From: Escherichia coli
Lineage (GTDB): Bacteria > Pseudomonadota > Gammaproteobacteria > Enterobacterales > Enterobacteriaceae
Length of the DNA: 64,000 bases
Reading direction: 5' to 3' (one strand)
NCBI RefSeq assembly: GCF_003991155.1
Contig: NZ_CP031293.1
Shown: positions 4,806-24,054 of the stretch, one piece after another
Layout: the number at the start of each line of letters is the position of its first letter
Position numbering within the stretch: the stretch's first letter is position 1
Translations under genes and position numbers: made by a program
Notes under the pieces: generated by a model
What the model saw: the letters and a program-made list of their open reading frames with translations, nothing else
Told to the model about the DNA's origin: nothing
Database searches by the model: none

Positions 4806-7157
4806 GTGGCGCAGGCAGGTTTTATCTTAACCCGACACTGGCGGGATACCCCGCAAGGAACCGAAGTTTCCTTTTGGTTAGCGACGGACAACGGGCCGTT
4901 GCAGGTTACGCTTGCGCCGCAAGAGTCCGTGGCGTTTATTCCCGCCGATCAGGTTCCCCGCACCCAGCATATTTTGCAGGGTGAGCAAGGCTTTCGCCTG
5001 ACGCCGCTGGCGTTAAAGGATTTTCATCGCCAGCCGGTGTATGGCCTTTACTGTCGCGCCCATCGCCAGTTGATGAATTACGAAAAGCGCCTGCGTGAAG
5101 GTGGCGTTACCGTCTACGAGGCCGATGTGCGCCCGCCAGAACGCTATCTGATGGAGCGGTTTATCACCTCACCGGTGTGGGTCGAGGGTGATATACGCAA
5201 TGGCGCTATCGTTAATGCCCGTCTGAAACCGCATCCCGACTATCGTCCGCCGCTCAGGTGGGTTTCTATTGATATTGAAACCACCCGCCACGGTGAGCTG
5301 TACTGCATCGGCCTGGAAGGTTGCGGGCAGCGTATCGTTTATATGCTGGGGCCAGAGAATGGCGACGCCTCCGCGCTCGATTTTGAACTGGAATACGTCG
5401 CCAGTCGCCCGCAGCTACTGGAAAAACTCAACGCCTGGTTTGCGACTCACGATCCTGATGTGATCATCGGCTGGAACGTGGTGCAATTCGATCTACGAAT
5501 GCTGCAAAAACATGCCGAGCGTTATCGTATTCCGCTGCGGCTGGGGCGCGATAACAGTGAGCTGGAGTGGCGCGAGCACGGCTTTAAAAACGGCGTCTTT
5601 TTTGCCCAGGCCAAAGGGCGACTGATTATCGACGGTATCGAGGCGCTGAAATCCGCGTTCTGGAATTTCTCTTCATTCTCGCTGGAAACCGTCGCTCAGG
5701 AGCTATTAGGCGAAGGAAAATCTATCGATAACCCGTGGGATCGGATGGACGAAATTGACCGCCGTTTCGCCGAAGATAAACCTGCGCTGGCAACTTATAA
5801 CCTGAAAGATTGCGAGCTGGTCACCCAGATCTTCCACAAAACTGAAATCATGCCGTTTTTACTCGAACGAGCGACGGTTAACGGCCTGCCGGTAGACCGC
5901 CACGGCGGTTCGGTGGCAGCGTTTGGTCATCTCTATTTTCCCCGTATGCATCGCGCTGGTTATGTCGCGCCTAATCTCGGCGAAGTGCCGCCGCACGCCA
6001 GCCCTGGCGGCTACGTGATGGATTCGCGACCTGGGCTTTATGATTCGGTGCTGGTGCTGGACTACAAAAGCCTGTACCCGTCGATCATCCGCACCTTTCT
6101 GATTGATCCCGTCGGGCTGGTGGAAGGCATGGCGCAGCCTGATCCAGAGCACAGCACCGAAGGTTTTCTCGACGCCTGGTTCTCACGGGAGAAACATTGC
6201 CTGCCGGAGATTGTGACTAACATCTGGCACGGGCGCGATGAAGCCAAACGTCAGGGTAATAAGCCGCTTTCGCAGGCGCTGAAGATCATTATGAATGCCT
6301 TTTATGGCGTGCTTGGCACCACCGCCTGCCGCTTCTTCGATCCGCGCCTGGCGTCGTCGATCACCATGCGTGGTCATCAGATCATGCGGCAAACCAAAGC
6401 GTTGATTGAAGCGCAGGGCTACGACGTGATCTACGGCGATACCGACTCAACGTTTGTCTGGCTGAAAGGCGCACATTCGGAAGAAGAAGCGGCGAAAATC
6501 GGTCGTGCACTGGTGCAGCACGTTAACACCTGGTGGGCAGAAACGTTGCAACAGCAACGGCTGACCAGCGCATTAGAACTGGAGTATGAAACCCATTTCT
6601 GCCGTTTTCTGATGCCAACCATTCGTGGAGCCGATACGGGCAGCAAAAAGCGCTATGCCGGGCTGATTCAGGAGGGCGATAAACAGCGGATGGTGTTTAA
6701 AGGGCTGGAAACCGTGCGCACCGACTGGACGCCGCTGGCCCAGCAGTTTCAGCAGGAGCTGTACCTGCGTATCTTCCGCAACGAGCCATATCAGGAGTAC
6801 GTCCGCGAAACCATCGACAAACTGATGGCGGGCGAACTGGATGCGCGGCTGGTTTACCGTAAACGCCTTCGCCGTCCGCTGAGCGAATATCAGCGTAATG
6901 TGCCGCCTCATGTACGCGCCGCTCGCCTTGCCGATGAAGAAAACCATAAGCGCGGTCGCCCCTTGCAATATCAGAACCGCGGCACCATTAAGTACGTATG
7001 GACCACCAACGGCCCGGAGCCGCTGGACTACCAACGTTCACCACTGGATTACGAACACTATCTGACCCGCCAGCTACAACCCGTGGCGGAGGGAATACTC
7101 CCTTTTATTGAGGATAATTTTGCTACACTTATGACCGGGCAACTTGGGCTATTTTGA
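4806..7157 (+). CDS. polB: DNA polymerase II (family B)
   Basis: 783-aa ORF beginning [21 protein letters not shown]; contains the YGDTDS polymerase motif. Confidence 0.96.
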
Positions 7158-7320
7158 ACAAAAAAAGAGTTCGCCAGATACCATTTTGATGCGTGACGAA
7201 TGCTTTGCCATCCAGTACCATAGCGCCCTTTCCATTCCTGGACCTGAATAACACCACTACCTCATAAGCACGGTAGCGGGTGGTTATTGCCTGCAATTAA
7301 AGATATAGAGCCGAACACAT

Positions 7321-10227
7321 ATGCCTTTTACACTTGGTCAACGCTGGATCAGCGATACAGAAAGCGAATTGGGACTTGGAACCGTTGTCGCGGTGGATGC
7401 GCGAACTGTCACTTTACTTTTCCCATCTACTGGTGAAAACCGTCTGTACGCACGCAGTGATTCCCCCGTGACCCGCGTGATGTTCAACCCTGGTGATACC
7501 ATTACCAGCCATGACGGCTGGCAGATGCAAGTCGAAGAAGTAAAAGAAGAAAATGGCTTGCTGACCTATATCGGTACTCGCCTGGATACTGAAGAGTCCG
7601 GCGTAGCCCTGCGTGAAGTTTTCCTTGATAGCAAACTGGTGTTCAGCAAACCGCAGGACCGTCTGTTTGCCGGGCAGATTGACCGTATGGACCGCTTTGC
7701 GCTGCGTTATCGCGCGCGTAAGTATTCCAGCGAACAGTTCCGTATGCCGTACAGCGGCCTGCGCGGTCAGCGTACCAGCCTGATCCCCCATCAGCTCAAC
7801 ATCGCTCATGATGTTGGTCGCCGCCACGCGCCGCGCGTCCTGTTGGCTGACGAAGTGGGTTTAGGGAAAACCATTGAAGCCGGGATGATCCTGCATCAGC
7901 AACTGCTCTCTGGCGCTGCTGAACGTGTGCTGATTATCGTCCCGGAAACCTTACAGCATCAGTGGCTGGTAGAAATGCTGCGCCGTTTCAACCTGCGCTT
8001 TGCTCTGTTTGATGATGAGCGTTATGCCGAAGCTCAGCACGATGCTTACAACCCGTTCGACACCGAACAGCTGGTGATTTGCTCGCTGGATTTTGCCCGT
8101 CGTAGCAAACAGCGTCTGGAACATCTCTGTGAAGCCGAATGGGACCTGCTGGTGGTCGATGAAGCCCATCACCTGGTGTGGAGCGAAGATGCGCCGAGCC
8201 GCGAATATCAGGCCATTGAACAACTGGCAGAGCACGTGCCGGGCGTTCTGCTGCTGACCGCAACCCCGGAACAACTGGGGATGGAAAGCCACTTCGCCCG
8301 TCTGCGTCTGCTGGACCCGAACCGTTTCCACGATTTTGCGCAATTCGTTGAAGAGCAGAAAAATTATCGTCCGGTTGCGGACGCCGTTGCCATGCTGCTG
8401 GCAGGTAACAAACTGAGCAATGATGAACTGAACATGCTCGGTGAGATGATCGGCGAGCAGGATATCGAGCCGCTGTTGCAAGCAGCAAACAGCGACAGCG
8501 AAGATGCACAGAGCGCCCGTCAGGAGCTGGTTTCGATGCTGATGGATCGCCACGGCACCAGCCGCGTGCTGTTCCGTAACACGCGTAACGGTGTGAAAGG
8601 CTTCCCGAAACGCGAGCTGCACACCATTAAGCTGCCGCTGCCGACACAGTATCAGACGGCTATTAAAGTCTCCGGCATTATGGGCGCACGCAAAAGTGCG
8701 GAAGACCGCGCTCGCGATATGCTCTACCCGGAGCGTATTTATCAGGAATTTGAAGGTGATAACGCCACCTGGTGGAACTTCGATCCGCGCGTTGAGTGGC
8801 TGATGGGCTACCTGACCAGCCATCGCTCTCAGAAAGTGCTGGTGATCTGTGCCAAAGCTGCCACTGCGCTGCAACTGGAGCAGGTACTGCGCGAACGTGA
8901 AGGTATTCGCGCCGCGGTGTTCCACGAAGGCATGTCGATAATCGAACGTGACCGCGCTGCCGCCTGGTTTGCTGAAGAAGACACCGGTGCGCAGGTACTG
9001 CTGTGCTCGGAAATCGGTTCTGAAGGACGTAACTTCCAGTTCGCCAGCCACATGGTGATGTTTGACCTGCCATTCAACCCGGATCTGCTGGAGCAGCGTA
9101 TTGGGCGTCTGGATCGTATCGGCCAGGCGCACGATATTCAGATCCATGTGCCTTATCTGGAGAAAACTGCTCAGTCGGTGCTGGTGCGCTGGTATCACGA
9201 AGGTCTGGATGCATTCGAGCACACCTGCCCGACCGGACGCACTATTTACGATAGCGTATACAACGATCTGATTAACTATCTGGCTTCACCGGATCAAACC
9301 GAAGGCTTTGACGATCTGATCAAAAACTGCCGTGAGCAACATGAAGCGCTGAAAGCACAGCTGGAACAGGGTCGTGACCGCCTGCTGGAAATCCATTCCA
9401 ACGGTGGCGAAAAAGCCCAGGCACTGGCAGAAAGCATTGAAGAGCAGGATGACGATACCAACCTGATCGCCTTCGCCATGAATCTGTTCGATATTATCGG
9501 TATCAATCAGGACGATCGCGGCGACAACATGATCGTACTGACGCCGTCCGATCATATGCTGGTGCCGGACTTCCCTGGCTTGTCGGAAGATGGCATCACC
9601 ATCACCTTTGATCGTGAAGTGGCGCTGGCGCGTGAAGATGCGCAGTTTATTACCTGGGAACATCCGCTGATCCGCAACGGTCTGGATCTGATCCTTTCTG
9701 GCGATACCGGTAGCAGCACGATTTCACTGTTGAAAAACAAAGCGTTGCCGGTAGGTACGCTGTTGGTGGAACTGATTTACGTGGTCGAAGCCCAGGCTCC
9801 GAAGCAGTTGCAGCTCAACCGCTTCCTGCCACCGACGCCGGTACGTATGCTGCTGGATAAAAACGGCAACAACCTGGCGGCGCAGGTGGAGTTTGAAACC
9901 TTTAACCGTCAGCTTAACGCGGTTAACCGTCACACCGGCAGCAAACTGGTTAACGCCGTGCAGCAGGATGTTCACGCTATCCTTCAGCTGGGTGAAGCAC
10001 AGATCGAGAAATCTGCCCGTGCACTGATTGATGCCGCACGTAACGAAGCCGACGAAAAACTGTCTGCCGAGCTGTCTCGTCTGGAAGCTCTGCGTGCAGT
10101 GAACCCGAACATTCGTGACGACGAACTGACCGCCATTGAGAGCAACCGTCAGCAGGTAATGGAAAGCCTGGATCAGGCAGGCTGGCGTCTGGATGCCCTG
10201 CGTTTGATCGTTGTAACGCATCAGTAA
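7321..10227 (+). CDS. rapA: RNA polymerase-associated Swi2/Snf2 ATPase RapA (HepA)
   Basis: 968-aa ORF beginning [25 protein letters not shown]; Walker A LGKT and DEAH box. Confidence 0.96.
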
Positions 10228-19254: not shown

Positions 19255-20103
19255 ATGGCGACATACCTTATTGGCGACGTTCATGGTTGTTACGATGAAC
19301 TGATCGCATTGCTGCATAAAGTAGAATTTACCCCTGGGAAAGATACCCTCTGGCTGACGGGCGATCTGGTCGCGCGCGGCCCGGGTTCGCTGGATGTTCT
19401 GCGCTATGTGAAATCCTTAGGCGACAGCGTACGTCTGGTGCTGGGCAATCACGATCTGCATCTGCTGGCGGTATTTGCCGGGATCAGCCGCAATAAACCG
19501 AAAGATCGCCTGACACCGCTGCTGGAAGCGCCGGATGCCGACGAGCTGCTTAACTGGCTGCGTCGCCAGCCTTTGCTGCAAATCGACGAAGAGAAAAAGC
19601 TGGTGATGGCCCACGCCGGGATCACGCCGCAGTGGGATCTGCAGACCGCCAAAGAGTGCGCGCGCGATGTAGAAGCGGTGCTGTCGAGTGACTCCTATCC
19701 CTTCTTCCTTGATGCCATGTACGGCGATATGCCAAATAACTGGTCACCGGAATTGCGGGGGCTGGGAAGACTGCGTTTTATCACCAACGCCTTTACCCGT
19801 ATGCGTTTTTGCTTCCCGAACGGTCAACTGGATATGTACAGCAAAGAATCGCCGGAAGAGGCCCCTGCCCCACTGAAACCGTGGTTTGCGATTCCTGGCC
19901 CCGTCGCTGAAGAGTACAGCATCGCCTTTGGTCACTGGGCATCGCTGGAGGGCAAAGGTACGCCGGAAGGTATTTACGCGCTGGATACCGGCTGCTGTTG
20001 GGGCGGGACATTAACCTGCCTGCGCTGGGAAGATAAACAGTATTTTGTCCAGCCGTCGAATCGGCATAAAGATATGGGTGAGGGAGAGGCGGCCGCGTCT
20101 TAA
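19255..20103 (+). CDS. apaH: Bis(5'-nucleosyl)-tetraphosphatase (symmetrical)
   Basis: 282-aa ORF beginning [16 protein letters not shown]; metallophosphatase GDxHG motif. Confidence 0.95.
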
Positions 20104-20127
20104 CGCTTTACCATTCAGGGAGGAATA

Positions 20128-20727
20128 ATGGCTGACTATTTTGAAATACGTGCTGATTACAATCAGCACACCATCACGGTTTATCAGGCTTACAATGATG
20201 CAATCGCTGACGTCGCCGTACGTGACGGGCGATTTGGCGCACCTTTTTCATTCAACCGCATGACCTGGATTAAACCCTCTTTTATGTGGATGATGGAGCG
20301 TAGCAACTGGGGACTGAAAAAAGATCAACAACGCATTCTCGCAATCCGAATCAAACGCACCTTCTTTGATACATTGCTGGAACAAGCGGTGCTAACCACG
20401 CCGGAAGCCCATGTCTATCCACATGCAGGAGTTTGGGAAACGTTATTTGCGCAAGCAAATGTATATGTTCAGTGGGACCCAGAACGCAGCATAAATGGCA
20501 AAAAACTGGAGCACCGATCATTACAGCTTGGTATTTCTCGTAACTTGATCAGTCAATTTAACGAAGACGCCATTGTTGCCATTGATGATCTGACGCCGCT
20601 GGTGCGAAAGTGTCATAACCTTTTGATAAACGGTAAAACAACACAGGCGAAATCCTTCCTGCCGCCAGAAAAAATTTATCCTGTTAGTGCAACTGCAAGA
20701 AAGGCTTGGGGAATGAAAAATTCCTGA
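20128..20727 (+). CDS. Hypothetical protein (199 aa), accessory, function unknown
   Basis: ORF with good SD (GGGAGG) 24 bp after apaH; about 45% GC, lower than neighbours; not part of the K-12 apaH–folA junction as I recall it. Confidence 0.6.
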   Translation: MADYFEIRADYNQHTITVYQAYNDAIADVAVRDGRFGAPFSFNRMTWIKPSFMWMMERSNWGLKKDQQRILAIRIKRTFFDTLLEQAVLTTPEAHVYPHAGVWETLFAQANVYVQWDPERSINGKKLEHRSLQLGISRNLISQFNEDAIVAIDDLTPLVRKCHNLLINGKTTQAKSFLPPEKIYPVSATARKAWGMKNS

Positions 20728-20762
20728 GACAAATACGCGCCTATTAAGCGGAAAATATCTAA

Positions 20763-21212
20763 GTGCGACAAATCAACGCCGGGCTTAATACCAGAGAAAT
20801 TATTCTGGAAATGATTGACGAAGCAGATGACCCCCCGTTTGCTGAGCAGCGAACCTGGCATCGCAGGCGAATCGCTTTTCTTTGTGAGTGCATCAGCGTT
20901 GCTGTCGACTACGGCTTCTTCTGTTCTGTCTCTCAGCAGTCAATAATGAACATAACCAGGATGGCTGAAGATGTATGGATAACAGAAAGTAAAACGACCC
21001 AACTCATTGATATCTGGCAGCAACTTAAGCAGCTTTATCCGCCAGAAACTATTCCCTATACCCAGCAGTTACCCGCTAAAGAATTGCTTGAACTGCTACT
21101 TTCCAGTCCTGACGATCTTCGAATAATTGAAATCCCTGACATCATCGGCGATGTTTTTGATGACCAAACCTGGATTCGATTATTCAAAAAACACTTTGCT
21201 GATGTTATCTAA
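20763..21212 (+). CDS. Hypothetical protein (about 133-149 aa), accessory, function unknown
   Basis: ORF-track frame opens at a GTG at 20763; the first in-frame ATG is at 20811 (MIDEADDPPF...); acidic; start codon uncertain. Confidence 0.5.
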   Translation: MRQINAGLNTREIILEMIDEADDPPFAEQRTWHRRRIAFLCECISVAVDYGFFCSVSQQSIMNITRMAEDVWITESKTTQLIDIWQQLKQLYPPETIPYTQQLPAKELLELLLSSPDDLRIIEIPDIIGDVFDDQTWIRLFKKHFADVI

Positions 21213-21528
21213 CTACGATGTGATGTGTAACAATCTAAAATACATCGCCAGACGACAGACCAAAAAGAAAGTATTTAGCAGATACTCAACATTCTGACTT
21301 CTGTACAGAAATAGCAGAGTTTAAAAACTTAAAATTTCCGGTACTCATCAGAGAAACATCCTGTTTCTTCTGCAAGTTCATTTAATGCCGAGATGGCATC
21401 CTCGTTTACTTCAGTCCACTGTAGAGTGGCTTGAGGGTTTAGACCTACGCAATGAGTGCGACTCACAAAATCGCGCTCACTGGTAAAATCAGACGTCTTA
21501 TCGTTCAATTTGTAGTCATAGCAAAAAC

Positions 21529-24054
<2,526 letters not shown>

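Follow-up and report, generated by a model that had tools for sequence, protein, structure and literature searches.

The AT-rich tail of the apaH-folA insert of Escherichia coli probably represents a relic of a chromosomal ccdAB islet

The window, i.e. the whole stretch of 64,000 nucleotides that was analysed, is a segment of an E. coli chromosome with the gene order surA-pdxA-rsmA-apaG-apaH, followed by an insert (20104-21528) and then by folA-kefC. Strain 2016C-3878 was found to be 100% identical to the window across 20050-21600. The insert has a G+C content of 43.4% and carries two genes on the plus strand, one for a DUF4291 protein (20128..20727; Pfam PF14124, E 1.9e-68) and one hypothetical ORF without a family match (20763..21212). 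The rest of it, a tail of 316 bp (21213-21528), lies between this ORF and folA, the dihydrofolate reductase gene, which is annotated on the minus strand at 21529..22008. The right edge of the tail, 21528, is the last base ahead of the folA stop codon (21529-21531). The left edge is specific to the lineage of the window. A CAA to TAA nonsense change in codon 150 of the hypothetical ORF (21210-21212) leaves 149 aa here; in most alleles the ORF reaches 21230, 18 nt further, and encodes 155 aa. Positions 21213..21230 (plus strand) therefore hold what are elsewhere its last 6 codons, as judged from the annotations of four other alleles (L004-L007, 468-nt CDS), translations and alignment. The same ORF has a stop at W32 in another allele (L012), and some E. 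albertii genomes (L008, L009) have a shorter version or no call for it.

The first-pass annotation had described the tail as AT-rich and free of ORFs of at least 60 aa on either strand, and both points hold (39.6% G+C against 52.0% for the whole window, and nothing of that length in the ORF list). It had also proposed a search for short ORFs, which we ran. Lowering the cut-off to 20 aa exposed a 59-aa ORF on the minus strand (21329..21508, TTG start, TAA stop), one codon below the 60-aa threshold, with folA directly upstream on the same strand. The remaining small ORFs in the tail (31-56 aa) gave no support to the short toxin-like peptide gene that had been suggested. The label "non-coding" is thus right in that no ORF reaches 60 aa, but misleading in that the tail holds a recognisable remnant of a protein gene. 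On the minus strand the tail can be divided into 9 nt after the folA stop (21520..21528), an 11-nt stretch discussed below (21509..21519) and the 59-codon frame; a 98-bp spacer (21231..21328) separates the frame from the hypothetical ORF, and the two are convergent.

RefSeq gives the product of this frame, in every allele that we fetched, as "type II toxin-antitoxin system CcdA family antitoxin", in either a 59-aa or a 45-aa version. The shorter version runs over 21329..21466 from a GTG start, and the protein annotated for the frame in strain 2016C-3878 is WP_077249139.1. The Pfam CcdA profile (PF07362) matched with 34.3 bits (gathering score 22.4, E 3.2e-8), over profile positions 39-71 of 71 only. 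BLASTP aligned the 59-aa product with the 77-aa CcdA from a ccdAB strain at 47% identity (E 6e-19), with one 14-residue gap. The nearest relatives among 1.84 billion representative proteins were of the CcdA_O157 type and have the ETGCFSDEYRxF end in common. The NCBIfam equivalog model for CcdA of the F-plasmid type (NF010264, cut-off 100 bits) matched neither the 59-aa nor the 45-aa product, a model on which even intact CcdA_O157 scores only 38.9 bits. Judged by its sequence, the frame at 21508..21329 is a ccdA antitoxin remnant.

Preservation differs between the two parts of the protein. The C-terminal segment, which would bind CcdB, is kept, with 22 of 31 residues (71%) identical to CcdA_O157, and ends in the subfamily motif ETGCFSDEYRKF. 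The N-terminal part is less preserved (12 of 33 residues identical), and the ribbon-helix-helix domain for DNA binding and dimerisation is not intact, as the Pfam match does not include profile positions 1-38. The founding member of the family, CcdA of the F plasmid (72 aa), has the same arrangement, a ribbon-helix-helix domain at the N-terminus followed by a disordered C-terminal segment that binds CcdB. W35, N39, G54, F56, D58 and R61 of the reconstructed remnant were invariant across seven aligned CcdA proteins, F CcdA included. Overall identity to F CcdA is only 21%, and the latter is autoregulated, paired with CcdB and active in plasmid addiction, whereas the remnant has none of these properties.

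We compared the tail with intact ccdAB and with other remnant alleles, an alignment of strains having been proposed earlier as a check, and could map the missing spacer, the vestigial start of ccdA and the further lesions. The site is occupied by an intact ccdAB pair in about 37% of complete E. coli genomes: ccdA (77 aa) follows folA on the same strand in exactly this position, and ccdB (104 aa) borders on apaH. This ccdO157 system, which we confirmed in two loci (L002, L016), resembles the remnant in site, strand, position directly downstream of folA, Pfam CcdA family and C-terminal motif. The remnant differs in having no ccdB and no promoter/operator stretch, in its frameshifted start and in the loss of 14 codons; nucleotide identity between the two rises from 53% in the 5' part of ccdA to 74% in the 3' part, with third positions near saturation. 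Intact alleles have a folA-ccdA spacer of about 85 nt (in L002 folA ends at 2187 and ccdA starts at 2101), which is where the ccd promoter and operator would lie. This stretch is absent from the window, where DNA alignment leaves only the 9 nt at 21520..21528.

The vestigial 5' end of ccdA (21509..21519) was recognised by DNA and codon-level alignment. Its start, at 21519-21517, reads ATG ACT ACA AA, compared with ATG ACT GCA AAA in intact ccdA. A 1-nt deletion shifts this start out of frame, so that it reads M-T-T-N-stop, with the open frame starting again from an overlapping TTG. Most other alleles have AGG in place of the vestigial ATG. With the 1-nt gap restored, the codon alignment became collinear with CcdA residues 1-33. 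In addition, 14 codons (TVALNAELKKHAAT in CcdA_O157) have been deleted from the ribbon-helix-helix domain, and its beta-strand VTVTVD has become SDFTSE. An O157-type ccdA allele (P0016, a 59-aa variant of CcdA_O157) independently lacks 18 codons, in frame, right after ...AGLN. The near coincidence with the 14-codon deletion suggests that this part of ccdA may be prone to deletion.

Of ccdB we found no ORF and no similarity at the DNA or protein level in 21213-21328, and the next gene is the convergent hypothetical ORF. When the 116 nt past the ccdA stop were aligned with ccdB_O157, the fraction of shuffled sequences that scored at least as high as the observed one was 0.83 (local) and 0.31 (semi-global). 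A resemblance seen by eye (FLYRSQN and FTVYRSRGRN) was considered as a ccdB remnant in the spacer and rejected, the alignments being like those of shuffles and no Pfam match appearing at E<=10. The spacer at 21231-21328 likewise gave no Rfam match, unusual folding, terminator, Pfam match or homologue elsewhere in E. coli genomes. The tail as a whole probably represents a pseudogene relic of a chromosomal ccdAB islet that once lay between folA and apaH, followed by a short anonymous spacer.

The first-pass annotation had taken the tail for a boundary remnant of the inserted cassette, which might contain a degraded mobility gene or a small RNA. A degraded remnant is indeed present, but it probably belongs to another element and not to the end of a DUF4291 cassette. 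Nothing like a transposase or an integrase was seen in the tail, the degraded gene being the ccdA antitoxin. As for RNA, a search of the tail with Rfam 15 in E-value mode gave matches at chance level only (best overlap 20.2 bits against a gathering score of 98), folding energies on the two strands were like those of shuffled sequence (z -0.22 and -0.61), and no terminator of the hairpin-plus-U-run kind was found on either strand. No promoter-like site was found on the minus strand of the tail. The only one on the plus strand (21462-21489) was dropped as a candidate promoter, the number of such sites lying within chance (5 found, 3.3 expected).

These results bear on whether the tail acts as RNA, be it as a long folA 3' UTR that affects stability, as the source of a 3'-UTR-derived sRNA or as a buffer between the convergent transcripts of folA and of the DUF4291-hypothetical operon. 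REP elements can stabilise 3' ends. One occurs in the folA 3' flank of "empty" alleles (PMC3184786), and some 3'-end element may be needed there; in the window no terminator-like structure for folA precedes the tail. Divergence of the tail (3.7-4.7%) is also not above the synonymous divergence of its neighbours (6-9% in the DUF4291 gene, 11-13% in the hypothetical ORF). Weak constraint on the tail may be present, though the counts are small and the synonymous estimates inflated by transition bias. Against an RNA role, apart from the Rfam, folding and terminator searches, substitutions were found evenly spread over ORF and spacer, and we regard such a role as highly improbable. Under the preferred reading, of a relic followed by spacer, folA is the only plausible source of transcription into the remnant. 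A scan of the minus strand from the folA stop to 20750 gave no terminator-like site. With none ahead of the tail, the folA transcript must extend into it.

The ccdO157 islet between folA and apaH has reportedly been described in E. coli O157:H7 and many other strains by Wilbaux et al. 2007 and Mine et al. 2009 (Genetics 181:1557). The latter are said to distinguish four states of the folA-apaH region: a REP sequence, ccdO157 with its variants, a piece of DNA with a remnant, and, more rarely, such a piece with an insertion sequence in the remnant. The third is said to be a large piece that carries a remnant of the ccdA_O157 antitoxin and ORFs of unknown function. We take the window to be apparently this third state, and L012 to resemble the fourth. 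As far as we can judge, nothing essential distinguishes the window from that class, both having a ccdA remnant and two ORFs of unknown function. Since the remnant is annotated by PGAP and its allele class was apparently described earlier, the feature is already known. In L012 (1-125), one E. coli assembly, a repeat without RefSeq annotation, possibly an IS end or a MITE, breaks the remnant after about codon 22. This repeat is present in about 2,200 E. coli genomes, at 5 copies per genome in the median and 27 at most.

Among 5,426 complete E. coli genomes, 535 contained the tail at a coverage of at least 80%. A further group of about 2,029 matched only a conserved 77 nt of ccdA at about 80% identity, which corresponds to the ccdO157 type. 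In the more distant BLAST matches the ccdAB strains were likewise aligned only over query bases 125-201, i.e. 21337-21413, inside ccdA. The region can be sorted into alleles without any ccdA (about 53%, REP or "empty" alleles included), ccdO157-type alleles (about 37%) and remnant alleles (about 10%). The first of these fractions fits the figure, given in the part of PMC3184786 that quotes Mine et al., of about half of several hundred isolates with a REP sequence at folA-apaH. The region has been described as plastic, with a REP sequence, ccdO157 or defective ccd genes (PMC3184786, PMC7232551, PMC7167474), and ccdO157 as undergoing a degenerative process within E. coli (PMC2654758). The same remnant architecture was found in E. 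albertii and E. whittamii. ApaH has 282 aa in the ccdAB and DUF4291 alleles, where a GGAGAG insertion lies near the apaH 3' end (20075-20103), and 280 aa in the empty/REP allele; its C-terminus thus co-varies with the occupant of the intergenic site.

We next asked how the remnant is related to ccdO157. Relative to ccdA_O157, third codon positions are identical at 37.5% in the 5' part and 57% in the 3' part, compared with 61% and 83% for codon positions 1 and 2. As third positions are far less identical than the other two, most of the divergence would have arisen while both genes were under selection. By this measure the remnant is not a recent deletion derivative of a ccdO157 allele but comes from a long-separated ccd lineage. 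We have looked for an intact member of that lineage in three ways, none of which revealed one. A word-indexed search returned remnant alleles only. An exhaustive search of representative proteins gave O157-type or more distant CcdA as the nearest full-length sequences. A scan for an exact pattern in one genome per species gave two matches, the intact ccdAB locus of an E. coli record and the E. whittamii remnant. The nearest CcdA that is not of the O157 type (P0018) comes from an unrelated metagenomic context.

The other parts of the insert appear to have histories of their own. In a metagenome-derived enterobacterium (L018, ENA ERZ28630793) whose core genes are 78-83% identical to those of the window, a 189-aa homologue of the hypothetical ORF (5001-5570, 55% identical) stands alone between apaH and folA, without ccdA and without the DUF4291 gene. 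It has an extra N-terminal CxxC...CxxC segment that is absent from the Escherichia version, suggesting that the hypothetical ORF has long resided at the site and has lost its N-terminal part in Escherichia. This solitary homologue points to the insert being a mosaic and not one cassette.

The insert also differs much less between species than its surroundings do. Between the window and E. albertii (L010) or E. whittamii (L017), synonymous divergence is 0.21-0.34 in kefC, folA, apaH and apaG. The DUF4291 gene has only 0.06-0.08 and the hypothetical ORF 0.12-0.13, and the raw divergence of the tail is 0.037. Because the insert is far less diverged than the core genes, the allele has crossed species boundaries well after speciation. 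Remnant, hypothetical ORF and DUF4291 gene travel together as one folA-apaH allele, presumably spread by homologous recombination in the flanking core genes. The first-pass annotation had named a lack of transcription and of conservation beyond random expectation as what would refute its view. The tail does show such conservation, across three Escherichia species, and it is conservation by recent shared ancestry and not by selection on the ORF.

Joint travel of this kind could also mean that a single foreign piece brought in the DUF4291 gene, the hypothetical ORF and the ccdA fragment together. The three parts always co-occur, in the 535 E. coli genomes as well as in E. albertii and E. whittamii; all three have similarly low divergence between species, and the G+C content of each is below that of the flanks. 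However, the position and orientation of the remnant are those of intact ccdA, with its start within a few bases of the junction after TAAGTTT, and the ccdAB and DUF4291 alleles have a common 282-aa apaH 3' end. The hypothetical-ORF homologue alone at the site in another enterobacterium and the different levels of divergence of the hypothetical ORF, the DUF4291 gene and the tail also speak against one import. We therefore consider a single cassette unlikely, and less likely than a relic left in place, in favour of which speak the common junction and orientation and the solitary homologue.

To see whether the remnant frame is under selection, we counted the changes that segregate among six alleles (five from E. 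coli, one from E. albertii). There were 10 nonsynonymous and 3 synonymous changes, i.e. a per-site ratio of 0.91 from a test that comprises only 13 changes. Such a count is improbable if the true ratio were 0.1 or less (P = 2.4e-4) or 0.2 or less (P = 0.012), and compatible with a ratio of 1. At the same loci the ratios were 0.05 for folA and 0.04 for apaH. Purifying selection is clear for the DUF4291 gene (pN/pS 0.12), which sets it apart from its neighbours in the insert; the hypothetical ORF (0.31) may also be decaying in places. We also considered whether these neighbours form a defence system; the idea was rejected, as PADLOC gave no match for the DUF4291 protein, the hypothetical-ORF homologue or the remnant, and no model was matched.

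Disrupted alleles of the remnant were found in the public protein collection and in assemblies, one with a frameshift (P0009) and others with insertions of a multi-copy repeat (P0013, P0014, L012). The 59-codon frame is open in every complete allele that was aligned (five, plus E. albertii and E. whittamii), which carries little weight, as chance alone would mostly keep 180 nt open at about 4% divergence. An in-frame ATG is lacking, and so is a convincing Shine-Dalgarno sequence. Given the ratio of 0.91, the disrupted alleles and the lack of a promoter, ATG or Shine-Dalgarno sequence of its own, the frame is most likely a non-functional relic. This reading is tempered by the small number of alleles, by the survival of precisely the toxin-binding part, and by a tail divergence no greater than that of synonymous sites next to it.

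In F-plasmid CcdA the C-terminal 36-41 residues or so are enough to bind and neutralise CcdB. The remnant could on that basis be read as an orphan antitoxin with an anti-addiction role: translated at a low level from folA read-through, its CcdB-binding segment would neutralise the CcdB of an incoming or displaced ccd system, so that, for example, a resident ccdAB allele could be replaced by recombination without post-segregational killing. What is kept is precisely the part that corresponds to Pfam profile positions 39-71, it is better preserved than the N-terminal part, and its end is nearly identical to that of active CcdA_O157. The remnant shares the strand of folA and starts 9-20 nt past its stop, with no intervening terminator-like site, and in the lineage of the window the succession of folA stop, ATG..TGA and overlapping TTG (aTTGa) might allow termination-reinitiation. 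The allele has moreover spread over three species. For Erwinia chrysanthemi an anti-addiction role of the chromosomal ccd is established (PMC2654758), and orphan antitoxins have been discussed as anti-addiction modules (PMC7354431).

The substitution ratio, however, gives no sign of purifying selection, and several changes fall inside the binding segment itself (T/N32, V/A34, L/F45, G/E50, and C/F51 in P0006). The frame lacks the expression signals named above, the ATG that would serve for coupling is AGG in most alleles, and frameshifted and insertion-disrupted alleles persist. Protection would also rarely be needed, as ccdO157 is reported to be unable to prevent large deletions or to stabilise a plasmid (PMC2654758). 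The orphan antitoxins catalogued in enterobacteria, such as those in a Klebsiella pneumoniae survey (PMC7354431), likewise consist of an antitoxin ORF without an adjacent toxin, in surroundings that reveal decay from a canonical pair, but they are mostly full-length, whereas the remnant is truncated, has no upstream promoter stretch and shows neutral substitution. Overall we think an anti-addiction role very unlikely. A narrower form of the idea, in which the peptide would serve as a "passport" that neutralises CcdB and lets the DUF4291-type allele overwrite ccdAB alleles without killing the recipient, appears to us slightly less likely still. If true, it would help to explain why the allele has passed among the three species, E. 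coli, E. albertii and E. whittamii.

A non-functional relic thus remains the preferred reading, and the comparisons above suggest the following course of decay. A ccd system of the CcdA_O157 subfamily, from a long-separated lineage, would have followed folA directly and in the same orientation. It would have lost the toxin gene ccdB completely, and a deletion would have removed the upstream promoter/operator stretch, so that the former ccdA start now lies only 9 nt past the folA stop. Loss of 1 nt would have broken that start, and 14 codons would have been deleted within the N-terminal DNA-binding domain. The result would be the present 59-codon frame, which mainly encodes the C-terminal CcdB-binding segment, is probably in neutral drift and most likely inactive, and could reach the RNA level only within an extended 3' end of the folA mRNA. 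Both the sequence of these losses and the lack of expression of the remnant are what we infer from the state of the locus.

Part of this region has also been captured by plasmids. Captured blocks of chromosomal DNA were found in NZ_CP072804.1 (L013, pPK5074-69kb, 5046-6243) and NZ_MG252036.1 (L014, pSW2367-1, 5263-8519), both multi-resistance plasmids of E. coli, one IncY and one IncF/N/R. In both the block lies between IS1 and IS26, beside blaTEM-1, and contains folA, the ccdA remnant and part of the hypothetical ORF, with kefC-kefF as well on one of the two plasmids. The plasmid FolA differs from that of the window by P21L, H45N and H114Y, the first of which is a known trimethoprim-resistance change. 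The remnant on the plasmid block points to a donor chromosome with the DUF4291-type allele. Plasmid-borne folA has been mentioned without details of the block (PMC11171581).

Relative to what was already known, the separate ccd lineage, the exchange with E. albertii and E. whittamii, the mosaic insert and the plasmid capture are minor additions. The significance for biology at large is little and the practical uses are modest. A 60-aa ORF threshold can hide a recognisable pseudogene that is one codon short. The remnant is a handy marker of one of the three folA-apaH allele classes, and it tags the chromosomal origin of the P21L/H45N/H114Y folA copies on multi-resistance plasmids, in blocks bounded by IS1 and IS26. 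For the ccd family, the locus would offer a snapshot of how a chromosomal toxin-antitoxin system decays, the toxin going first and regulation next, while the toxin-binding end of the antitoxin lingers. The movement of the allele between species, together with an age at the level of ccdA that would be above that of any of the species, may be of interest for work on recombination hot spots and on the population genetics of toxin-antitoxin systems.
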